From Bacteroidales bacterium (lineage in GTDB: Bacteria > Bacteroidota > Bacteroidia > Bacteroidales > CAIWKO01): a stretch of 64,000 bases of DNA. Below the pieces are notes generated by a model. That model was not told the origin of the DNA. It ran no database searches and saw nothing but the letters and a program-made list of their open reading frames with translations. The DNA lies in assembly GCA_963678485.1 (NCBI GenBank), contig OY782882.1, forward strand, positions 4,066,339-4,130,338. The letters run 5' to 3'. This document shows positions 7,212 to 55,711 of the stretch, piece by piece (position 1 is the stretch's first letter; the number at the start of each line of letters is the position of its first letter). Both the position numbers and the translations under genes were made by a program.

Positions 7212-7303
7212 GGAGAGGTGGGTGAGCGGCTGAAACCAACAGTTTGCTAAACTGTCATACTGGGTAACTGGTATCGGGGGTTCGAATCCCCCCCTCTCCG
7301 CCA
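7212..7303 (+). tRNA. tRNA-Ser (anticodon GCT) with a long variable arm and encoded CCA
   Basis: Acceptor stem GGAGAGG pairs with CCTCTCC. The anticodon loop is TTGCTAA. A long extra arm precedes the T-arm GGGGGTTCGAATCCCCC, and the gene ends GCCA. Confidence 0.85.
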
Positions 7304-8060
7304 ATCAATCAAAAGTCCCGCAACAGCGGGATTTTTTTTTACCCCCGAACGCGCAAACAACGTTTGCAAGCGTCCGGGGGTAAAAAAAAATCGCGAGTGC
7401 GCAGCACACGGGACTTTTGATTGATTGAAGCCCCCACGCCGGGATCACGGAGCAGCGTTCGGGGCGAATTATCACGAACACTGCTCCGTAATCCCCACTC
7501 AATATTGTTTTTTCAACAGACGCGCAAACAACGTTTGCAAGCGTCCGGGGGTAAAAAAAATTGATCAAGCCGGATTGTTGAGGAAAGGTTTGAAGGTAAT
7601 ATTTGCAGGACTTCTTATTGTTTATCTCTCTGATTTCGCATTTCGTTTCTCGGATCTCTGATCTGTTTTTCTCTTTTCACCCTTTTCTCTTACTTCTTTC
7701 AGGCGCACCTACCCGACTGCGTCATTCGGGCGGGCCTGCCCGAATGACATCGGTCAGGCGGGGATTTCCGATTTACGAATGACGCAATTAACGAACATTC
7801 TATAATCGAGATATGTGGAATCCATGATTTTGCTTCAGTATTTTGAAATCAGAGATCCGAGAAACGAAATTAGAAGTACGAGATAAACCAAAGGAAAAGC
7901 CCGTGCTCACCAACTTTTCGTCTTGATCCAAAAAAAATCGCGAGTGCGCAGCACACGGAACTTTTGATAGATTCTATGATGCATGTTTTGCTTTTCTTAT
8001 AAACTCACTCAGGTGGTTGTTCCGATTTATCCAAAATGCTGTACCTTTGCATATCTAATA
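7304..8060. repeat. Complex intergenic region of nested inverted and direct repeats
   Basis: There is an outer inverted repeat at 7304-7320 and 7409-7427. A 42-bp element is present twice, at 7347-7389 and 7519-7560. The element AAAAATCGCGAGTGCGCAGCACACGGnACTTTTGAT is present twice, at 7385-7420 and 7931-7975. There is an 11-bp-stem hairpin at 7721-7748. One forward copy (about 7614-7680) and one inverted copy (about 7843-7890) of the 46-bp family arrayed at 54.3 kb are present. Confidence 0.6.
7317..7340 (+). terminator. Intrinsic terminator after tRNA-Ser
   Basis: The hairpin CCCGC-aaca-GCGGG is followed by a T9 run. Confidence 0.55.
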
Positions 8061-8073
8061 ACATATTGACATA

Positions 8074-9696
8074 GTGTATATTATTAAGTCATTCAAGGTA
8101 CTAATCCTGTTTGTGATTATCCTTGCCTCCAGCGCCGACGCTCAGCCATACGTGCAATTGCAGCCAACTGTGAACACTGATTTCGGTAAGGTCTATTATT
8201 TTTTGTGTCCAACAAAAGTGGGTACTAATCCACTTAATATTAAGCCATCGAGATTAATCCTCGATAGCAAGGGCGAGGTTATCTACTATAAAATTAATTA
8301 TGGCGGTCTGTATACCGGTGATTTTACCTTGCAACCCAATGGCATGATGTCATACAGTTTTAGGGGGAAATTTTTCCTCATGGATAGTACATTTACAATC
8401 CGTGATTCTGTAAAAACTATGAATGGTATCACGGCGGATTTACACGAATTACAAATTCTTCCTAATGGCCATTTTTTGCTGCTTGGTACTGAAGAGGTCA
8501 CAATGGACCTGAGCTCTTTTAATATGTTTAGCGGTAATGGCAGTCCTGGGAGCGATACAGCTATCGTAACAAGTGGCGTGATTCAAGAACTGGACGAAAA
8601 TAAAAACGTGATTTTTGAATGGCATGCATGGCAATATTACACATTTGATGATGTCGATGAAGCATTTTTGAATAATCCGATTACAGTGGATTGGACGCAT
8701 TTTAATTCACTCGAATTCGATAGTGATGGCAATCTGCTGGTTTCATCGAGGCATTTTAATGAAATCACTAAAATAGATCATACTACCGGCGACATAATTT
8801 GGAGGTTAGGTGGAAAACGTAATGAGTTTACATTTATCGGAGATAGCCAGCAATTCAAGGGGCAGCACGATATTCGGAGAATTGCCAACGGGAATATTAC
8901 ATTGTTCGACAATGGGAATGGAAATGCAAGTTCGGTCTTTCATCCCGCTTCGGCAAAGGAATATCATCTGGATGAAACAGTAAAAACGGCAGAATTGGTA
9001 TGGCAATTTGTAGATCAATCCGATGTTTACAGTACTGCATTGGGCAATGTTCAGCGTTTGCCGGATGGCCATACCTTAGTGAATTATGGTACTGAAGATA
9101 ACAATTCAGTAATCTTCAATGTTGTAGATACTGCGTGGAATAAGGTTTTCGAGATAAGCACCCCAAATGATCTCATCAGCTACAGAGCATTTTGTTATGA
9201 GAAACTTCCCTGGGAGTTGCCGCGTCCAATAATCAGTTGCACTGAATCGGGTGGGCAATTTTATCTTGATGCTGGTCCCGGTTATCCTGCCTATCGTTGG
9301 TCGGATGGAAGCACTACACAAAGTATTCAAGTTAATGGTGTGGACTCCTTTTATGTTTTTGTGCCTATTGGTCAGGGTGGTTTTATCAGATCGGAAAAGT
9401 TTGTTGTAATCAATCCGGAAAACCCTTGTGATATGGCCTCTGTATCAATGGTCACAGAGCCGGAATTGAAAATATTGCCCAATCCTGCCTCTGATGTTAT
9501 CAGGCTTATCGCGAAAACCGCAATAAAAAGTATAAATGTATATGATGCTAGAGGCATCCTTGTTAGTACTTGGCTGGGAAGTACTGATGAGATTGAGATT
9601 CCCTGTGCGTCCTTGTCGAATGGTGCATATTACATGCATATTCAAGATGTTGCCGGTAATATAATCATAAAAAGAATGATTGTTCTGCATCCATAG
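8074..9696 (+). CDS. Arylsulfotransferase (ASST/Arylsulfotran_2)-like beta-propeller protein with a type IX secretion C-terminal sorting domain
   Basis: There is a signal peptide. The ASST-like block is HFNSLEFDSDGNLLVSSRHFNEITKIDHTTGDIIWRLGG...GQHD...NGNITLFDNGNG. The C-terminal sorting domain is KILPNPASDVIRL. Confidence 0.5.
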   Translation: MYIIKSFKVLILFVIILASSADAQPYVQLQPTVNTDFGKVYYFLCPTKVGTNPLNIKPSRLILDSKGEVIYYKINYGGLYTGDFTLQPNGMMSYSFRGKFFLMDSTFTIRDSVKTMNGITADLHELQILPNGHFLLLGTEEVTMDLSSFNMFSGNGSPGSDTAIVTSGVIQELDENKNVIFEWHAWQYYTFDDVDEAFLNNPITVDWTHFNSLEFDSDGNLLVSSRHFNEITKIDHTTGDIIWRLGGKRNEFTFIGDSQQFKGQHDIRRIANGNITLFDNGNGNASSVFHPASAKEYHLDETVKTAELVWQFVDQSDVYSTALGNVQRLPDGHTLVNYGTEDNNSVIFNVVDTAWNKVFEISTPNDLISYRAFCYEKLPWELPRPIISCTESGGQFYLDAGPGYPAYRWSDGSTTQSIQVNGVDSFYVFVPIGQGGFIRSEKFVVINPENPCDMASVSMVTEPELKILPNPASDVIRLIAKTAIKSINVYDARGILVSTWLGSTDEIEIPCASLSNGAYYMHIQDVAGNIIIKRMIVLHP

Positions 9697-25800: not shown

Positions 25801-25874
25801 GGTTCCGTAGCTCAGTTGGATAGAGCAACAGCCTTCTAAGCTGTGGGTCGCGCGTTCGAATCGCGCCGGAATCA
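25801..25874 (+). tRNA. tRNA-Arg (anticodon TCT)
   Basis: The acceptor GGTTCCG pairs with CGGAATC, including one G-U pair. The anticodon loop is CTTCTAA. The T-arm is GCGCGTTCGAATCGCGC. Confidence 0.85.
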
Positions 25875-26063
25875 CTAAGGATTCAGAAGGTTTTCAAAAA
25901 GCAGGTTTAACAGGGTTTAAATCTGCTTTTGTTTTTTTAATCTTTCATTTAAGCTGCAACAACACGGGTATCCATCCAAAGTTGCTTCTGTAGTCTGCCG
26001 TTACCTTGTAAAAGTTAACCGTTATCTGATTCAATGTAATACAATAATAAAAGTCTTATATAT

Positions 26064-27299
26064 TTGTTATTTCTAATTTACTTTTCTCTACTAATAAAAG
26101 TTGACAGAATGAAAAAAATAATTACGTTTATTTTGTTTCTTGCTGCATGCAATATTTCTTCGGCGCAGTGGACAGCCATTGATACCGCAGATATAAATGC
26201 GATATGGCTTGTTGAGCCAGATAATGGGTGGTCATTTCAACAGCAATTCAAACATTGGGATGGAGCCAGCTGGAGTGTTGCAGTGCAAGATTCGGCATTT
26301 GGCGCTTCTTGCTGTGCTTTTCCAGCTGCAAACAATGGCTGGGCATTTGGTTATCAGGATAGCTTGTACAGATTTGATGGTTCCTCATGGACAAAATACT
26401 TTTCAGGAATGCCCTATATTCGTTATTGTGATTTTTATGATAGTGACCATGGTTGGGCATTAACAGGTGGACTCTCATATAAATATCATAATGGAATATG
26501 GACACCCTATCCAATAAATTTACCTTCATACATTTTTTGCGATGTGATGGCCATTTCCGCAAGTGATTCAGCTGTCGCCTGGATATCTGGAATTGCTAAC
26601 TTTAATAATCCAAATACAGATACTTCTTATCTGTTAAAGTTTGTGACAAATCAATGGGTGATCGATACTGCGATTGCTGATACATATTTATTTAGTGTTT
26701 GTTTTACTGATCAAAATCATGGCTGGGCTAGCGGATTATGTGATAATAATTCTGTAATATATAAGTATAACGGTAGCCATTGGTCTTTGGATTACCAGAG
26801 TCAAGATCCCTATGGTACAAGTTGTATTTATATGTATGATAATAATCATGGATGGGCATCAAGTGAATCTAGAAAACTATATAATTATGATGGATTTAAC
26901 TGGTTCATTCAGGATACAACTCTTAGGTTGATTTGTCAATTCTCTTTTGCTAACCAAATGAATGGCTGGGCATTAGGGAGAAGCACTGCTCATATTGGGC
27001 CGTATAATGTTGTTTATAGCACTACAACAGGCGGATTCGGCATGGATAAACTCTTTTATGATGAATCATCGGATTATCTTGTTTTTCCAAATCCCGCAAC
27101 AACAACAATAACGCTGAATATTCCTGCAGAATTTGGTCTAACAGGATCACTTGAGGTTTATAATAGTCTGGGGCGGGTGGTAGAAGTTCACGCGCTATGT
27201 ACTCCACTAGATGTTAGGACATGGACAAGGGGGTTGTATTTTGTTGCGATCAAAAATGATAGAGGTGAAAGATTGTGCGCTAAAGTGGTTAAGGAATAG
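26064..27299 (+). CDS. Secreted repeat (propeller-like, Trp-rich NGWA/HGWA repeats) protein with a type IX secretion C-terminal sorting domain
   Basis: The likely start is at MKKIITFILFLAAC, at about 26109. It has 7-8 repeats centred on [NH]GWA[FLS]. The C-terminal sorting domain is LVFPNPATTTITL. Confidence 0.5.
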   Translation: MLFLIYFSLLIKVDRMKKIITFILFLAACNISSAQWTAIDTADINAIWLVEPDNGWSFQQQFKHWDGASWSVAVQDSAFGASCCAFPAANNGWAFGYQDSLYRFDGSSWTKYFSGMPYIRYCDFYDSDHGWALTGGLSYKYHNGIWTPYPINLPSYIFCDVMAISASDSAVAWISGIANFNNPNTDTSYLLKFVTNQWVIDTAIADTYLFSVCFTDQNHGWASGLCDNNSVIYKYNGSHWSLDYQSQDPYGTSCIYMYDNNHGWASSESRKLYNYDGFNWFIQDTTLRLICQFSFANQMNGWALGRSTAHIGPYNVVYSTTTGGFGMDKLFYDESSDYLVFPNPATTTITLNIPAEFGLTGSLEVYNSLGRVVEVHALCTPLDVRTWTRGLYFVAIKNDRGERLCAKVVKE

Positions 27300-27385
27300 C
27301 AAATTAATGAATTTGAACTCGTTCTATTGAGATTTCAATCGTTAAGTAAAACGATAATGAAGGCACTCTGATTGAGCTATTTTTT

Positions 27386-28204
27386 TTACTCAATCAGATC
27401 AAATTCGAATTTTCCAATATCATCCCGCATTAGCCATAAGCTAGGCTTAGCAACAAAATTCCCTGGACGAATTCCGCATTTTATATAGTACTCTTTGCCC
27501 GGTTCTATAGTGATAGTCAGTGAAGCCCGAGATTCGGTAACTGCAATTATTGTAACTGTACCGTAATGATTAATAATAACATCTTTGCTACTGCTATTGA
27601 TGGAGTTATAAACCAAGGAATCGTTAAGCAAAACGGGATAGACCCAAATGTTTCCGTAAGTGGTATTTGTTCGATAAAAATGAAGTATAGCATGTGTTGT
27701 AGTGTCTGAACTTTGTTGCACTGACGGTTCCGTGAAATTCGTATCTAAAGGAATTCTATAGATCTCCGCCCTGAGTTTTCGCTCAGATGTGACATAATCG
27801 GTCGGAGAGGGCATTGTTATACGAAGCGCATTACCACCAATCTTCTTTGCTTCATACTTTGCCTCTAGTATATTTTTTTCAAGGTTGTCACCTAATGCGC
27901 TCTTTGCACCGAAAATACGCACGAAACCCAATTTTTCAGCATTATCGGGCAATGTATCTCTGATTCCGTATAAAGCAATATGATTACAATTTAAATTGTT
28001 GTCATATGTTTTTATAATGGAGGTTCGGATGTGACTGCAGGCCGATAGCAGAATTGTACATATTATAATTGAAATGAATATATTTTTGGGTGCAATGGGT
28101 GATGTCATGATATCGGGTATGGCTGGTTTATTTATATTTTTCGTTGTGATATTATTGCCATCACAAACAAATGATTTCATATTTTGGAATGATTTAGATA
28201 TCAA
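27386..28204 (-). CDS. Hypothetical lipoprotein
   Basis: There is an internal Met followed by a lipobox (ILLSAC). No recognisable domain was seen. Confidence 0.4.
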   Translation of the reverse strand: MISKSFQNMKSFVCDGNNITTKNINKPAIPDIMTSPIAPKNIFISIIICTILLSACSHIRTSIIKTYDNNLNCNHIALYGIRDTLPDNAEKLGFVRIFGAKSALGDNLEKNILEAKYEAKKIGGNALRITMPSPTDYVTSERKLRAEIYRIPLDTNFTEPSVQQSSDTTTHAILHFYRTNTTYGNIWVYPVLLNDSLVYNSINSSSKDVIINHYGTVTIIAVTESRASLTITIEPGKEYYIKCGIRPGNFVAKPSLWLMRDDIGKFEFDLIE

Positions 28205-28260
28205 AAATACGAATATTAATATTGATGCATTATAGAATTTGAACCGATGTTGAAATGTGC

Positions 28261-28495
28261 GATGCCTGCGGCATCGGGATGGCGGTGCGGGTGTGATGGG
28301 AGCTACAAAGGTGGGATGCCTTCGGCATCCATTGATGCGGTGCGGTTGTGATGGGTGTTACAATGGGGGATGCCTTCGGCATCCTAGGGAGATGTGCAGT
28401 TTTGGGAGGCGTAGCATGGTTGCGATGCCTTCGGCATCTTTGGCGTGGTGCAGTTTTGAGAGATGTCAGATGGGTGAGATGCCTATGGCATCGGG
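28261..28495 (+). repeat. Array of 5 REP-like units (~56 bp each), each built around the hairpin GATGCC-TTCG-GGCATC
   Basis: Hairpins recur at about 28261, 28318, 28373, 28428 and 28477. The inter-hairpin segments are also mutually similar (GGTGCGGNTGTGATGGG, GTGCAGTTTTGRGAGG). Further GAAG and TTCG tetraloop hairpins lie at 28618-28636 and 28668-28691. Confidence 0.75.
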
Positions 28496-28702
28496 CGATT
28501 CGAGAATTGAATGTTGATGTTAATAACGACGCTTCTCGTACCTATGCTGGACTGTGTTTGTAAAACATTGATGATTGAAGAATCATAGGAAATGCTGAAA
28601 ATTCAATCCCAATGTGATTATCCCGAAGGGATAACACATTGGTGGAAAATGGCTGCAGTGTAGGTTGTGCGACCCCGAAGGGGTCGAACATTGTACAAAA
28701 AA

Positions 28703-29182
28703 TCAAATATCTAAATTTGAATATTCAATCCAATCAAATAGAAATCGATCTTCATAAGATATTTCAAATTTTTTCAAGAATCCTATGTATTCTGATTTAA
28801 AAGCGGTTTTACTATGATGTTCTTTTTGCCGCATAATATACTTGACTACTCTATCAATTTGTGATTGGCTATAAGTAAATGCCCCATATCCTTCTTGCCA
28901 GTAAAATTTCTGTTTGGTGAATTTTCCCTCGTTTATAAATGTGTTGCTTGATTTTTTTATTTCTCTCACCAAATCCGAAATCCGACATTCGGGTTTCATC
29001 CCAATAAAAATATGTATGTGGTCTGGCATACCATTTATTGCAAGCATTTTTTGACCATTTTTCTGAACGATGCCAGTGATGTATTTGTGCAATCGTTCTT
29101 CCCATGAAGGGAGGATCAGTGCATTTCGATGTTTTACAGCGAAAACCACCTGAACGTGGAGTTTTGAAAATGTTCCGGACAT
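28703..29182 (-). CDS. tnpA: IS200/IS605-family Y1 (HUH) transposase TnpA, possibly a REP-associated tyrosine transposase (RAYT)
   Basis: The ORF is 159 aa. The HUH motif is HIHIF. The upstream motif is HVQVVFAVKHR. There is a C-terminal Tyr region (QEGYGAFTYS). Hairpin repeats lie on both sides of the gene. Confidence 0.75.
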   Translation of the reverse strand: MSGTFSKLHVQVVFAVKHRNALILPSWEERLHKYITGIVQKNGQKMLAINGMPDHIHIFIGMKPECRISDLVREIKKSSNTFINEGKFTKQKFYWQEGYGAFTYSQSQIDRVVKYIMRQKEHHSKTAFKSEYIGFLKKFEISYEDRFLFDWIEYSNLDI

Positions 29183-29301
29183 AATTAGATTTATTTGTTT
29201 TGTTTCTGTAAAAATAAAAATAATTTAAATGAAAAATTGATTGTTTTTTTGTGATACCCCTTCGGGGTCGGATACAAATATTATTGTTTTTCATAATGTG
29301 C

Positions 29302-29580
29302 GATGCCGACGGCATCGGGATGGCGGTGCGGGTGGGATGGGAGCTACAAAGGGGGGATGCCTTCGGCATCCAGGGTAGCAGTGCAGTTTTGAGAGGCGTA
29401 ATAGGGTTGCGATGCCTTCGGCATCCATGCTGTGTTGCAGGTGTGATGGGTGTCACCTAGGGGGGATGCCTTCGGCATCCAACAGAGCAGTGCAATTTTG
29501 AAAGGCGTAGCATGGTTGTGATGCCTTCGGGGTCAATGGGCAGCAGTGCAAGTTGTGCGACCCCGAATGGGTCGAACACA
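29302..29580 (+). repeat. Second array of 5 REP-like hairpin units, paralogous to 28261-28495, ending in the hairpin GTGCGACCCCGAATGGGTCGAACA
   Basis: The first unit is nearly identical to the first unit of the left array. GATGCCTTCGGCATC recurs. The terminal hairpin at 29553-29577 is a direct repeat of the one at 28668-28691. Confidence 0.75.
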
Positions 29581-29752
29581 ATATGTGGTTGCGCATGAAT
29601 AGCGAGTGCATCGATGTCATTGGTTGATTTGTAAGGGGCATGGCGTCGAAAACCATATTGAATACGCTGTATTGCTTGATTAATGAATAAAAGCACATGT
29701 TTCTAATCTTTAATCATTAAATTTGTGACCATATTTCACAAACAATCTTGCA

Positions 29753-30847
29753 ATGAATACGATTCATAATCTAAAAAAAGGAATTTTTATAATCGCTTTT
29801 CTGAGCCTGACTATTTCTTCGTGTAAAAAGGATGATGAGGTAAAGCTTTCTGTAATAAAAAAACCAACCACAGCTGCTTATGTTGGAAGTTACTATCTTT
29901 CAACCGCGCGCTATATTCTGGCGGCTTCGGGTGCAGGAGACAAGGTGCTTTTTGCCGGTGGCTCCGATGGTAATATAGATAATGATCAGGTTGATATTTA
30001 CGATGTTGTTACACATTCATGGACTACTTCTCAACTTTCAGAAGGCCGGCATGGATTAGCATCCGCTTCCAATGGTGATCTGATCATGTTTGCAGGCGGA
30101 TGGATCAATGGCAACTATTCAAAGGCCGTAGATTTTTATAACGTAAAAACTGGACTCTGGACTTATTCGGAATTGAGTGCTTCAAGAGGATACCCGGCTG
30201 CAGCAAGTGCAGGCGACAAGATGGTTGTGGCTGGTGGCTTTAATGGTACATATTCTACTATTGTCGATATCTATACTATTTCTACTGGATTATGGACTAC
30301 AGGTCAATTGAGCGAAGGGAGGAATTTTATTACAGCGGCTGGCTGTGGTAACAAAATTCTTTTTGGTGGCGGGTCCACTGGTTCGCAACCTACAAGTACC
30401 GTAGATATTTATAATATTACTGACAATACTTGGTCTGTTTCCCACCTTAGCAGTCCCCGGTTTTTTCTTACCGCAACCGCGGCTGGTGGTAAAGTGTTTT
30501 TTGCCGGTGGTTCCGACAATGTGGCTTTTTCTGATATTGTTGATATCTATGATGTGGCTAGTGGTACATGGTCGGTGAGCCATTTAAGCGAAGCCCGAAA
30601 TGATTTATCCGCTGCGGCCATTGGGAACATTGTTCTGTTTGCCGGTGGTAGCAATCTCCTTGGTGAGTCAGATGTGGTAGATATTTATGATTTAAGCACA
30701 GGCTTGTGGTCGGTTTCGCATTTGAGCGAAGCACGCGGATATTTGGCCGGTGCAGCCACAAGAGATAAATTTGTTTTTGCTGGTGGTCTGAATGGTCCTA
30801 ATTGGACAGATGTTACAAAAACGGTTGATGTTTTTGAACTAAAATAG
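29753..30847 (+). CDS. Kelch-repeat (galactose-oxidase-like beta-propeller) lipoprotein
   Basis: There is a lipoprotein signal (LTISSCKKD). There are seven ~47-aa repeats of the form AGG..G....VDIYD..T..W. Confidence 0.65.
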   Translation: MNTIHNLKKGIFIIAFLSLTISSCKKDDEVKLSVIKKPTTAAYVGSYYLSTARYILAASGAGDKVLFAGGSDGNIDNDQVDIYDVVTHSWTTSQLSEGRHGLASASNGDLIMFAGGWINGNYSKAVDFYNVKTGLWTYSELSASRGYPAAASAGDKMVVAGGFNGTYSTIVDIYTISTGLWTTGQLSEGRNFITAAGCGNKILFGGGSTGSQPTSTVDIYNITDNTWSVSHLSSPRFFLTATAAGGKVFFAGGSDNVAFSDIVDIYDVASGTWSVSHLSEARNDLSAAAIGNIVLFAGGSNLLGESDVVDIYDLSTGLWSVSHLSEARGYLAGAATRDKFVFAGGLNGPNWTDVTKTVDVFELK

Positions 30848-30976
30848 TTCATCATCATCGCAGACCTATCCGGTTCAAGAATAAATATTCTTAATATTTA
30901 CTTTTTTTTCTAAAGAGTGATTACATTTATACCTTAAATGTTATTCACTCTTTAATAATTTAAAGGAGGTACATAA

Positions 30977-33025
30977 ATGATAATGAATTTAGTTTTTATC
31001 GCTGCAGGAGTGGTCCTATTAATCATCCTGTTGGCATCCAGCATCGTGGTTGTTCGCGGTGATTCCATCGCAGTACTTGAACGTAAATGGTTTGGTAAAG
31101 ACATGCCACAGGGGCGTGTTATTGCTATGAAGAATGAGGTAGGTATACAGGCCCGGACTCTTGGTCCTGGTATGCATTTCCTCACACCTTTTATTTACAA
31201 AGCACGCAAGTTTCCCTTCACTATTATTCAGGAAGATGAGGTAGGTTTGGTTGAATCCATCGACGGAAATTCTATTCCAGCTGGAAAGATTTTCGCGAAG
31301 GTGGCTGAAAATCATGATTCATTTCAAGATGGCGTCGTATTTCTTGAAAATGCAGGTGAGAAAGGTCCCCAGCTTGAAATATTACCTCCCGGAACATACA
31401 GAGTCAACCCTGTTCTCTTTAAGGTAAAAAAGGTTCCCGCAACAGTCATTAATAAAGGGCAAATTGGACTTCTTACGGCCATGGATGGTGAGCCTATTCC
31501 TACTGGTCGTTTGCTTGCTCAGAATATTTTCGGGATATCTATTTTCGAAAATGGCGAATTGTTTTTGAAGAATCATGGGCAAAAAGGTCCGCAAGCACAG
31601 ATACTGCTTGCAGGAACTTATCGTATTAATACCGATTTGATTAAGATTGAAATTTATCCTGCAACCGTTGTACCGACTGGAAAGGTTGGTCTTGTTACAG
31701 CTCGCGATGGCGAACCATTACCAGAGACAGAGTATGTTGCAAAGTCGATTGAGGGGCACAATAATTTTCAGGATATAGAGGCCTTCCTTAAAAATGGCGG
31801 TCAGCGCGGACCACAGCTCGATGTGTTGAAACCCGGTACTTATTACATCAACCCATTGATGTTCCAGGTGGAAGTCGACGAGGTGGCTATTGTTGAGCGT
31901 GGACAGGTTGCAGTGGTTGTTTCGAACGTCGGTGAGGAACCTAGTCAGATCAAGGAATTAATCACTAAAGTTGCCAGCAAGGAAAATGCTCCAACAACCG
32001 AAGAGTCTAAGATTGCAGAAGAACGTCTGAATGTGGGGATTGAACGTTATGTTGTTCCCAAAGGATACCGTGGTATACAGCAAGAGGTTGCAGGCCCGGG
32101 TCTTTATTATCTGAACCGTCGTGCTTACATTGTGTACGTTATAGACACAACGAATATCACCATCGATTGGGACGATGCAAAAGAGACTAATTTTGATCCG
32201 TTGAAAGTGATTTCACGTGATGGTTTTGAAATAAGCGTTTCCGTGAAGGTCATCATTCGTGTGCGTCCGGATCAGGCACCTTATATGGTTGCGAAGATTG
32301 GATCAATTGACAATCTCATTCAGCACGTGATTCATCCTATGATTGATTCAAGTTTCAGGAATCAGGCTTCATCGACCTCTGCCATGAATTTTATGCAGGA
32401 TCGTCAGGAAGAGCAACATAAAGCTGAGGAGCGCGCTCGCATTGAACTTGAGAAGTACCATGTGGAATGTGTATCTGTATTGATTTGTCAGATTACATTA
32501 CCTCAGGATTTGATGGATACGCAGACTATCAAAATCATTGCGCAACAGCAACAGGCCATGTTTACTGAGCAACAGAAAGCTGAACAAACGCGTATTGCCA
32601 CTGAGAAAACACGTTCTGAAGCTGATCAGCAGAAGAATTTAGTGGAAGCTGAAATAGGAGTGAAGATTGCCGAGCAAAATAAACTTAAGCAAATTAAGAT
32701 TGCAGAAGGACAATCAGAAACATTCCGCCTTCAGGCTGAAGGTGAAGCTAAAGGTATTAAAGCCAAAGGTGAGGCAGAAGCATCGAAGATTCTTGCAATT
32801 GGAGAATCAACAGCAAAAGCCTATGAGCTTCAGAATAAAGCTGTCGGAATGCAGGGTGTAACTGCGATTGAAATTGCCAAGCAGATATCTCTTGGCAATA
32901 TTAAAGTAACACCTGACTTCCTTGTTCAGGGAGGCGAAAGCATCGGAGGTTTGTTGTCTGCTTTTCTTACCAAGCAGATTATGATTAATCCGGAATCTAA
33001 AATAGATTCTCCTACTGATAAATAG
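30977..33025 (+). CDS. Flotillin-like SPFH/band-7 membrane protein with three N-terminal tandem ~88-aa repeats
   Basis: There is an N-terminal TM segment. Three repeats end in KGPQ...GTY.IN. The C-terminal SPFH region is followed by a Glu/Ala-rich flotillin-type coiled coil (KAKGEAEASKILAIGE). Confidence 0.6.
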   Translation: MIMNLVFIAAGVVLLIILLASSIVVVRGDSIAVLERKWFGKDMPQGRVIAMKNEVGIQARTLGPGMHFLTPFIYKARKFPFTIIQEDEVGLVESIDGNSIPAGKIFAKVAENHDSFQDGVVFLENAGEKGPQLEILPPGTYRVNPVLFKVKKVPATVINKGQIGLLTAMDGEPIPTGRLLAQNIFGISIFENGELFLKNHGQKGPQAQILLAGTYRINTDLIKIEIYPATVVPTGKVGLVTARDGEPLPETEYVAKSIEGHNNFQDIEAFLKNGGQRGPQLDVLKPGTYYINPLMFQVEVDEVAIVERGQVAVVVSNVGEEPSQIKELITKVASKENAPTTEESKIAEERLNVGIERYVVPKGYRGIQQEVAGPGLYYLNRRAYIVYVIDTTNITIDWDDAKETNFDPLKVISRDGFEISVSVKVIIRVRPDQAPYMVAKIGSIDNLIQHVIHPMIDSSFRNQASSTSAMNFMQDRQEEQHKAEERARIELEKYHVECVSVLICQITLPQDLMDTQTIKIIAQQQQAMFTEQQKAEQTRIATEKTRSEADQQKNLVEAEIGVKIAEQNKLKQIKIAEGQSETFRLQAEGEAKGIKAKGEAEASKILAIGESTAKAYELQNKAVGMQGVTAIEIAKQISLGNIKVTPDFLVQGGESIGGLLSAFLTKQIMINPESKIDSPTDK

Positions 33026-54296: not shown

Positions 54297-54325
54297 GGGC
54301 CGCCCGAGAGGGCGGCTCTTTTTTT
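54297..54325 (+). terminator. Intrinsic terminator after pepF
   Basis: The hairpin GCCGCCC-gaga-GGGCGGC is followed by a T7 run. Confidence 0.7.
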
Positions 54326-54960
54326 CTCTCTCATTTCGTATCTCTCTCCTCTGTTCTTTGATCTGTCTTTTCTCTCTCATTTCGTATTTCGCTATTCTGT
54401 TCTCTGATCTGTCCTTTCTCTCTCATTTCGTATCTCGCTACTCTGTTCTCTAATCTGTCCTTTCTCTCTCATTTCGTATCTCGCTACTCTGTTCTCTGAT
54501 CTGTCTTTTCTCTCTAATCTCGTATCTCGCTACTCTGTTCTCTGATCTGTCTTTTCTCTCTCATTTCGTATCTCGCTCCTCTGTTCTCTGATCTGTCTTT
54601 TCTCTCTCATTTCGTATCTCGCTACTCTGTTCTCTGATCTGTCTTTTCTCTCTCATTTCGTATCTCGCTATTCTGTTCTCTGATCTGTCCATTCTCTCTC
54701 ATTTCGTATTTCGCTAATCTGTTCTCTGATCTGTCCTTTCTCTCTAATCTCGTATTTCGCTACTCTGTTCTCTGATCTGTCCTTTCTCTCTCATCTCGTA
54801 TCTCGCTACTCTGTTCTCTGATCTGTCTTTTCTCTCTCATTTCGTATCTCGCTACTCTGTTCTCTGATCTGTCTTTTCTCTCTCATTTCGTATCTCGCTA
54901 CTCTGTTCTCTGATCTGTCTTTTCTCTCTCATTTCGTATCTCGCTATTCTGTTCTCTAAT
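54325..54960 (+). repeat. Tandem array (~14 copies) of a 46-bp pyrimidine-rich unit, TCTCTCTCATTTCGTATCTCGCTACTCTGTTCTCTGATCTGTCTTT
   Basis: The period is 46 bp with a few point variants. The array is capped by inverted partial copies at 54971-55010 and 55065-55105. Two further units (55540-55640) and an inverted copy (55644-55683) lie on the other side of the gene at 55123-55497. Confidence 0.85.
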
Positions 54961-55122
54961 CTAATTTTTAAATCAGAGAACAGAAAAACGAAATTAGAGA
55001 TACGAGATGTGCAAGGAAGAAAGGCAGAATAGGCTTTTATGTTTGTTGCCGTGATTAGGCTAATAAATCAGAGAACAGAGAAACGAAATTAGAGATACGA
55101 GATGTCCTGCAACGGAGTTTTT

Positions 55123-55497: not shown

Positions 55498-55711
55498 GAT
55501 TTTGTTTTTTGTTTTGTTTTCATTTTTTTTCTCTGTGCTTTTCTGTCTTTTCTCTCTAATCTCGTATCTCGCTTCTCTGTTCTCTGATCTGTCTTTTCTC
55601 TCTCATTTCGTATCTCGCTATTCTGTTCTCTAATCTAATTTTTAAATCAGAGAACAGAAAAACGAAATTAGAGATACGAGATGTCAGTACTCCAATTACC
55701 AGTGATTAGCC

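Follow-up and report, generated by a model that had tools for sequence, protein, structure and literature searches.

A Y1 HUH enzyme of TnpAY1 subclass 1.2 and its phased hairpin modules in a Bacteroidales genome

The 64,000-nucleotide stretch analyzed here, hereafter the window (Bacteroidales bacterium, contig OY782882.1, forward-strand positions 4,066,339 to 4,130,338), carries a tnpA-like gene for a small Y1 HUH enzyme that stands between two arrays of short hairpins. We favor, as somewhat the more probable account, a resident, IS200-like Y1 enzyme of class 1, probably domesticated or nearly immobile, together with cognate hairpin modules, which it would amplify and trim locally. This reading is carried by the family and catalytic residues of the protein, by the association of oriented, regularly phased hairpins with genes of this family, by compensatory changes in the hairpin stems, and by module numbers that vary at sites where the gene itself persists. 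The protein family is already known, as is the general idea of a REPtron, in which a Y1 gene is flanked by its cognate palindromes; what appears to be unreported is the conserved three-hairpin A-B-C module, phased and oriented as it is, the variation in its copy number near subclass 1.2 genes, and a recurrent link to hsdS. The sole survey that names the family credits subclass 1.2 with neither repetitive extragenic palindromes (REPs) nor ends of the insertion sequence (IS) type, and no Rfam family covers the hairpins. Phased, covarying modules give subclass 1.2 a candidate DNA substrate and a testable biochemical assay.

The enzyme and its family

The gene lies at 28703..29182 on the minus strand and is an intact open reading frame (ORF) of 159 aa. 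Its product matches the Pfam profile Y1_Tnp (PF01797; E = 9.6e-28, 97.2 bits, cut-off 23) and the NCBIfam IS200 equivalog NF033573 (76.5 bits, cut-off 55), whereas the NCBIfam model REP_Tyr_transpos (NF047646), which describes REP-associated tyrosine transposases (RAYTs), gave 32.5 bits, below its cut-off of 80. The motif PDHIHIF aligns with the HUH motif of ISDra2 TnpA, and KYIMRQ aligns with KYIESQ of ISDra2, which contains Y132. Among solved structures, the closest by sequence are TnpA of ISDra2, of Sulfolobus and of IS608, and E. coli TnpA_REP (4ER8) gave no sequence match at E <= 1. An AlphaFold model (predicted local distance difference test score 77.6) led to the same proteins: ISDra2, IS608 and Sulfolobus TnpA occupy Foldseek ranks 1–29 (E = 6e-8 to 6e-6), and E. 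coli TnpA_REP follows at rank 30.

The key residues of the protein are H55 and H57 (HUH), W95-Q96, and Y115-x3-Q119-K-x-H122-H123. H55, H57, Y115 and Q119 are invariant across 30 homologues, as are K125, F128, E131, Y132, L136, L148 and W151 in the C-terminal part. The tyrosine motif YIMRQKEHH is the signature of subclass 1.2; class 2 has YIxxNP. Judged by these sequence features (DHIH, WQ, YIMRQKEHH, the length and the conserved C-terminal tail), the window protein belongs to TnpAY1 subclass 1.2. It is an IS200/IS605-type Y1 HUH enzyme, as a first-pass annotation made from the DNA letters had proposed on the strength of its HUH motif, and not a class-2 RAYT.

Homologues are numerous, with at least 8000 at 90% clustering (roughly 65–72% identity) and 152 clusters at 50% identity with E <= 1e-30, under names that include Chitinophagales, Sphingobacteriales, Cyclobacteriaceae and Bacteroidales. 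Mean column identity is 78% in the 30-sequence sample, which spans orders, and the exact window protein is recorded for this locus only. Several homologues of ~290 aa (P0244, P0245, P0246 and others; P and L numbers are our own handles for homologous proteins and for fetched loci or contigs) carry two tandem Y1 domains and may be single-chain 'dimers' of the subclass 1.2 family.

Subclass 1.2 was described by Quentin, Siguier, Chandler and Fichant (BMC Genomics 19:475, 2018; PMC6006769) as low-copy (1.7 copies per genome, with 36% identity between copies), found only in Bacteroidetes and Cyanobacteria, without IS properties and 'REP: no'; according to the same paper, the study of Bertels et al. 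2017 does not cover it. The automatic search of that survey accepted only stems of 7 bp or more that had GT[AG]G 0–2 nt away, and because of these two requirements it would miss the hairpins of subclass 1.2. We found no literature on subclass 1.2 later than this survey. The survey also bears on the first-pass statement that systems of this kind are mostly found outside Bacteroidota, since hairpin-associated Y1 genes had already been described in Bacteroidetes, in subclasses 2.4 and 2.6 (PMC6006769).

Hairpin arrays and a covarying three-hairpin module

Both flanking arrays lie in the orientation of the gene, on the minus strand. Array A, downstream of the gene at 28253..28495, has five hairpins (28260-28276, 28314-28330, 28368-28384, 28424-28438 and 28478-28492) with a period of 54–55 nt, and array B, upstream at 29295..29535, has four (29301-29317, 29355-29371, 29411-29425 and 29464-29480) and a hybrid at 29520-29534. 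The perfect palindrome GATGCC-NNN-GGCATC occurs nine times, starting at 28261, 28315, 28369, 28424 and 28478 in array A and at 29302, 29356, 29411 and 29465 in array B; a tenth, degenerate copy lies at 29520 (GATGCCTTCGGGGTC). In the 64-kb window, the sole other match is a one-mismatch chance site at 9544, which gives 10 matches, versus 0.2 expected from shuffles. The palindrome is 15 nt long, with a 6-bp stem (7 bp in six copies) and a 3-nt loop, TTC, replaced by TGC, TAT or GAC in three of the nine perfect copies.

The first-pass annotation had described five ~56-bp units per array, each centered on a perfect hairpin GATGCC-TTCG-GGCATC. The number of units holds for both arrays, one unit being degenerate, but the unit is 54–55 nt long (Tandem Repeats Finder gives periods of 54, 54 and 55 nt) and the UUCG tetraloop has to be abandoned: because the loop has only 3 nt, no C(UUCG)G tetraloop can form on the GATGCC stem. 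That the two arrays are paralogous is confirmed by 87% identity between 28254-28358 and 29295-29399, their first 105 nt. The spacers are of two types in irregular alternation, and the four G3 runs considered as a possible G-quadruplex are found in the a-type spacer only. All array units in the window have direct orientation; a check for inverted, REPIN-like pairs, which the first-pass annotation had suggested, thus returned direct units throughout.

Hairpins of other types stand between the arrays and the gene. Read along the gene strand, the order is a degenerate B hairpin (29574-29558), array B, a partial B hairpin (29268-29256), 73 nt of AT-rich sequence, tnpA, a B hairpin and a C hairpin, beyond which ~125 nt of non-repeat sequence lead to array A. 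The complete B hairpin, CGACCCC-GAA-GGGGTCG at 28670-28686, begins 17 nt past the tnpA stop codon and is followed on the gene strand by CACA, as it is in relatives of the locus, where this form of B is typical; it is held in one copy of a direct repeat (28651..28690, minus strand), the other copy of which (29539..29578, minus strand; 90% identity) contains the imperfect B-type hairpin CGACCC-CGAAT-GGGTCG at 29558-29574. This repeat had been noticed in the first-pass annotation and is upheld here, together with two hairpins overlooked there: the C-type hairpin TTATCCC-GAA-GGGATAA (28618..28634, minus strand), 52 nt centre-to-centre from the B hairpin, and the partial B-type hairpin ACCCC-TTC-GGGGT (29256..29268), 73 nt upstream of the ATG, where 15 nt are 100% complementary to 28670-28684. 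Each array ends, on the gene strand, in an A-type unit GGATGCC-gaa-GGCATCC followed by 4 nt (cacc in array A) and TTTGTAG, and then in a B-like hairpin, CGATGCC-nnn-GGCATCG cacatt (loop gca in array A), which has the layout of B with two compensatory changes in the stem. The hybrid hairpin at 29520-29534, GATGCC-TTC-GGGGTC, takes its 5' arm from one type and its 3' arm from the other, with its breakpoint at the loop.

An independent Logan short-read assembly (ERR12015700) contains a contig (L001) that matches window positions 25840-32773, 6.9 kb, with 0 mismatches, so the locus is not an assembly artefact; no ORFs are called within the arrays of this contig. On the plus strand, the 5' flanks of the hairpins read GTGC, GTGG, GGGG, TTGC, GTGA and TTGT, and no consistent GTAG or GTGG is present within 0–2 nt 5' of the hairpin foot in the window arrays. 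Two other candidates were set aside, a CRISPR-like array, as the 'spacers' are paralogous and cas genes are absent, and intrinsic terminators, as no T-runs follow the hairpins. PADLOC gave no match for the Y1 protein or its neighbors.

Relatives of the gene were examined at 35 metagenome loci, together with the context of nine further homologues and two Verrucomicrobia loci met by chance. Of 30 related loci, 25 have at least two hairpins no farther than 400 nt from the ORF; in that zone there are 6.1 hairpins per kb, versus 0.45 per kb beyond 1.5 kb. These hairpins are perfect and GC-rich, have stems of 6–7 bp and cluster at the gene ends, and the centre-to-centre spacing between neighbors peaks at 50–54 nt (41 of 103 spacings). 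The REP/RAYT-like arrangement seen in the first-pass annotation is therefore sound as far as a Y1 gene among its own hairpins is concerned, and this holds family-wide; it fails for the protein, which is not a RAYT.

In many loci, the hairpins form a three-hairpin module, A-B-C, in gene orientation. The stem of hairpin A varies (TGAACCC, TGACCTC or GATGCC, for example), and the hairpin is followed by ~5 nt and then TTT(A/G)TAG, a motif that sits 4–5 nt 3' of A-type hairpins on the gene strand. Hairpin B, (T)TCGACCCC-loop-GGGGTCG followed by CACA, has an invariant stem and a loop that is free to vary. Hairpin C reads CTA(C/T)AAA, ~5 nt, (C/T)AATCCC-loop-GGGATT(G/A); because CTA(C/T)AAA precedes its stem, mirroring the layout of A, C amounts to an A-type unit in inverted orientation, and the tails of A and C pair with each other. 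Modules are in gene orientation on both sides of the gene in L124, L125, L127-L129, L132, L134, L147, L149 and L278. The hairpin that the first-pass annotation had singled out as distinctive is not so in its stem: GATGCC is the usual A hairpin in several relatives (L276, L283-L289, L292 and L297), and also flanks 40%-identity homologues in Verrucomicrobia. Some homologues' ORFs run through a GATGCC-type hairpin, which gives them C-terminal '...DAEGI...' tails. Set beside these relatives, the window arrays represent amplification of the module's first (A-type) unit, with stem GATGCC. The window also keeps B and C together as a module directly past the stop codon, and part of a B hairpin ahead of the start.

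Covariation was assessed in an alignment of 18 modules from nine loci, chosen by their B hairpin and by eye. With four helices (A, a long-range stem enclosing B, B itself and C), 89.7% of cells are paired, a figure that drops to 28–51% if the 3' partners are slid by 1–3 columns. Compensatory changes occur at 14 pairs, a count that 0 of 500 shuffles reach, although kinship among the module sequences inflates these shuffle statistics. The long-range stem has 11 bp, is 87% paired and covaries at 6 of its 11 pairs; RNAalifold with default settings gave the three local hairpins only, and this stem was entered manually and scored on its own.

A covariance model built from the module, R1, finds matches almost only beside the gene in related loci, where its gene-strand scores exceed those on the opposite strand (for example, 147 versus 90 bits). 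In 741 kb of unrelated control loci it gave two matches, both in one Cyclobacteriaceae metagenome-assembled genome (MAG). Within the window, every R1 match with E < 0.05 falls at this locus. The best (28601..28740, minus strand; 48.2 bits, E = 5.3e-8, with 40.3 bits on the plus strand) comprises the B and C hairpins, with a degenerate A position overlapping the ORF at its 3' end; another falls on array A at 28195-28347 (E = 4e-4).

Helices that covary, in modules that always have the orientation of the gene and lie within co-directional operons, are also what would be expected of structures acting at the RNA level, namely elements of the 5' and 3' untranslated regions by which transcripts of the gene, and of genes beyond it such as hsdS, would be stabilized, terminated or attenuated, and which would not be substrates of the enzyme; known REPs can indeed stabilize mRNA (Quentin et al. 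2018, PMC6006769). However, wobble cells in the module show no strand bias (18 G-T versus 23 A-C), and because G-T and A-C cells are equally common, a DNA palindrome fits better than a structure of one RNA strand. The hairpins lack T-runs after them and match no Rfam family (nothing above chance in 27800-30000, and three tRNAs only in the whole window), and a role confined to RNA would leave the tight linkage to an enzyme of single-stranded DNA hairpins unexplained. We consider this alternative very unlikely.

Array size, persistence of position and dispersal

Unit numbers differ even between loci that encode the same protein. Assemblies with an identical P0042 contain a single copy of the 51-nt A unit (four assemblies), two copies (L288) or at least four around a scaffold gap (L285). 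Another relative, L297, has ~17 whole modules over 2.6 kb. This array (L297:6462-9040), which lies between tnpA and hsdS, is built of a 131-nt unit and shows higher-order periods of 347 and 429 nt; gene callers render it as a string of ORFs of 50–92 aa.

The gene itself stays in place. It occupies the same position in L123/L126 and in L127/L129, whose flanks are only 83–90% identical; additional modules are present in L129, as is a 2.7-kb insert with modules at its borders. A position shared despite such divergence of the flanks, together with variable modules, points to long residence at a fixed site with unstable arrays. The ORFs of L127:8001-8459 and L129:8001-8459 are 98.9% identical between flanking genes that are only 83–90% identical, which could reflect either recent replacement by recombination or unusually strong constraint. 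A separate pair from one metagenome, L131:480 and L136:480, has genes that are 96% identical and sequences that diverge exactly past the 5' arm of the first downstream hairpin, directly after CTGAACCC.

The same observations bear on whether the gene is simply an ordinary, active IS200-type insertion sequence, the modules being its left and right ends and the extra arrays incidental tandem duplications. The score above the IS200 equivalog cut-off would agree with this, as would modules that flank the gene on either side in one orientation, like the ends of IS608 and ISDra2; the L127/L129 ORF hints at recent exchange, and a subgroup of 35% identity (L151-L153) is found in partial tandem copies. 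Yet the exact protein is on record for this locus alone, the gene keeps its position between genomes with diverged flanks, and the protein is very strongly conserved across orders. The published survey, moreover, has the family as low-copy and without IS properties, and the gene is embedded co-directionally in operons, with a 4-nt overlap with hsdM or with the ATPase gene of an ATP-binding cassette (ABC) transporter. The locus does not appear to behave as an active IS200, and we regard this explanation as quite unlikely.

Away from the gene, hairpins are scarce. The other 62.7 kb of the window hold no further hairpin or module copy, and in relatives, same-stem hairpins are rare more than 1 kb from the gene. 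A different picture is given by the contigs L202 and L205+L203 of uncultured Bacteroidota MAGs, in which hairpin arrays fill successive intergenic regions. These arrays consist of 2–8 different GC-rich hairpins, ~50 nt apart, of the types GAACGCC, CAACCCC, GAATCCC, CGATGGC, CGACCCC and GGATGCC (including GGATGCC-TTC-GGCATCC), and no Y1 gene is present within the 8–14 kb fetched around them. The arrangement looks like dispersal of the REP/BIME type, and arrays without a nearby Y1 gene in two MAG contigs indicate that hairpin dispersal occurs in some genomes. The 15-mer GATGCCTTCGGCATC, compared with viral contigs, and the 18-mer GGGATGCCTTCGGCATCC, compared with 185,579 genomes, gave matches that, among those listed, were mostly chance, terminator-like or coding (WDAFGI) and came from many phyla; for the 18-mer, 119 stretches were listed and the source genome was not among them. 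In a Chlorobiota MAG (L269:2569-6830), nine GGATGCC-TCC/GGA-GGCATCC hairpins with a period of ~75 nt and a common 5' flank, GGTTGTGG, alternate with a longer palindrome (CCTAGGGTC...GACCCTAGG), and no Y1 gene is present in the 8-kb block.

Genome-wide dispersal is the defining test for REPs. A true RAYT/REP (REPIN) system would be a single-copy domesticated transposase that maintains genome-dispersed hairpins, with the local arrays as the REPtron. The gene is flanked by its own hairpins; the short-read assembly spans it, suggesting a single copy; the arrays of L202 and of L203+L205 stand without a Y1 gene within 8–14 kb; and the A and C units form an inverted, REPIN-like pair, all of which would suit such a system. 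Against it stand the failed RAYT model (32.5 bits against a cut-off of 80) and the class-1 tyrosine motif of the protein, the absence of GT[AG]G 0–2 nt 5' of the stems, the direct orientation of the window units, the lack of copies in the remaining 62.7 kb of the window and the rarity of same-stem hairpins beyond 1 kb in relatives. Membership of RAYT/REP fails on the class of the protein, on the missing GTAG at the hairpin foot and on the direct units, and within the window itself no dispersal is seen; we judge it unlikely.

On the favored reading of a resident enzyme with cognate modules, the enzyme would bind the hairpins in single-stranded DNA, for example on the lagging-strand template, would cut beside or within them by means of Tyr115 and a metal ion held by the HUH motif, and would rejoin the strands. 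Hairpin units might be duplicated, deleted or moved in this way, aided by replication slippage between repeats of 27–50 nt. Cutting and rejoining of units would allow the arrays to grow and shrink beside the gene, and in some genomes such mobilization may spread units to other intergenic sites.

Several points weigh against this reading. Several nearly invariant N-terminal positions are altered in the window protein (Q7K, Y9H and Y32H), and these substitutions might render it inactive. Comparison of unit boundaries between 1-copy and 2-copy alleles gave no consistent guide or cleavage tetranucleotide, the 5' feet being GCCC in one case and AACG in the other. Replication slippage alone could account for the changes in array size. 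The counts of gene and hairpin copies cover 64 kb of the 4.86-Mb source genome.

Genomic context and relation to known systems

Genes of Type I restriction-modification recur beside the homologues. Among nine homologues whose context was looked up, hsdS adjoins the gene in five. For P0042, P0062 and P0054 the order is hsdM, tnpA (with a 4-nt overlap with hsdM), modules, hsdS and hsdR; for P0070 it is hsdR, module, hsdS, module, tnpA, module and hsdM; and P0105 has tnpA, hsdS and a Bro-N gene, with hsdM and hsdR absent. The same Bro-N gene as at P0105 stands beside tnpA in L122. The other four homologues have unrelated contexts, one of them inside an ABC-transporter operon; tnpA is co-directional in operons, overlapping hsdM or the ABC ATPase gene by 4 nt. 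Adjacency of tnpA and hsdS takes at least three gene orders, across the loci L283-L290, L292-L293, L297, L278, L294-L296 and L122, and a Bro-N gene is often near such loci.

This recurrent place beside hsdS suggests a cellular role that is worth testing. A far-reaching version would make subclass 1.2 enzymes and A-B-C modules a distinct, hitherto undescribed, domesticated Bacteroidota system of single-stranded DNA hairpins that amplifies and trims ~52-nt-phased arrays. It would be repeatedly built into operons for Type I restriction-modification, usually as hsdM, tnpA, hairpin array, hsdS and hsdR, where the specificity subunit HsdS would be controlled or diversified through array length or Y1-catalyzed rearrangement; on this view the copy in the window is one unlinked to restriction-modification. 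We consider this extension doubtful.

The window itself has no restriction-modification genes. Neighbors of the gene there are ordinary: an uncharacterized 272-aa protein, a Kelch-repeat lipoprotein and a cargo protein of the type IX secretion system (Por_Secre_tail). In a comparison for synteny and empty sites, none of the fetched loci shares the neighboring genes of the window; the locus of P0123, the closest relative (88% identical) of an SPFH-domain neighbor, has only that gene in common with the window.

Other repeats occur in the window far from the locus. A pyrimidine-rich 46-bp tandem repeat at 54322-54962 (13.9 copies, 94% identity), with 2.1 further copies ~600 bp downstream at 55542-55636, is probably non-coding, because 46 is not a multiple of 3. 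A 180-bp tandem repeat at 1605-2359 (4.2 copies, sub-periods of 9 and 42 bp) encodes collagen-like Gly-X-Y. Just downstream of the tRNA at 7212-7300, a palindrome and its flank (GCAAACAACGTTTGC aagcgtccgg) are duplicated at 7353-7377 and 7524-7548, 171 bp apart.

Among known systems, subclass 1.2 as surveyed by Quentin et al. 2018 (PMC6006769) shares with the window protein DH[IV]H, WQ and Y---Q--HH, a length of ~150 aa that includes the conserved C-terminal tail, its presence in Bacteroidota and what is apparently a low copy number. It differs in its entry 'REP: no', to be set against phased hairpin modules in 25 of 30 loci here. IS608 and ISDra2, the closest relatives in the Protein Data Bank by both sequence and structure, have the same fold and catalytic motifs, and there too the hairpins flanking the gene are all on one strand. 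Unlike theirs, however, the ends here are A-B-C modules with a long-range stem, often repeated twice to ~17 times, and the gene is apparently low-copy and stable in position, with no target or guide tetranucleotide identified.

The REPtron of E. coli yafM (Ton-Hoang 2012; Corneloup 2021, PMC8266576) resembles the present locus in having a probably single-copy Y1 gene flanked by cognate GC-rich palindromes, in tandem-amplified clusters, as in BIME-2, and in cleavage and rejoining of folded single-stranded DNA, which for the present enzyme is presumed. By contrast, the enzyme is of class 1 here and of class 2 there, no GTAG marks the hairpin foot here, and the window has perfect stems of 6–7 bp in direct units, phased at 50–55 nt and confined to the one locus within the window. 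With REPINs (Bertels and Rainey 2011), the modules of relatives share A and C units that are inverted copies of one another (hairpin, 4–5 nt, TTTRTAG) and whose tails pair, but an invariant third hairpin, B, stands between the two arms and the window arrays consist of direct units only. The favored reading would thus extend the idea of the REPtron from class 2 to class 1 Y1 enzymes, and bears on how IS200-like transposases become domesticated.

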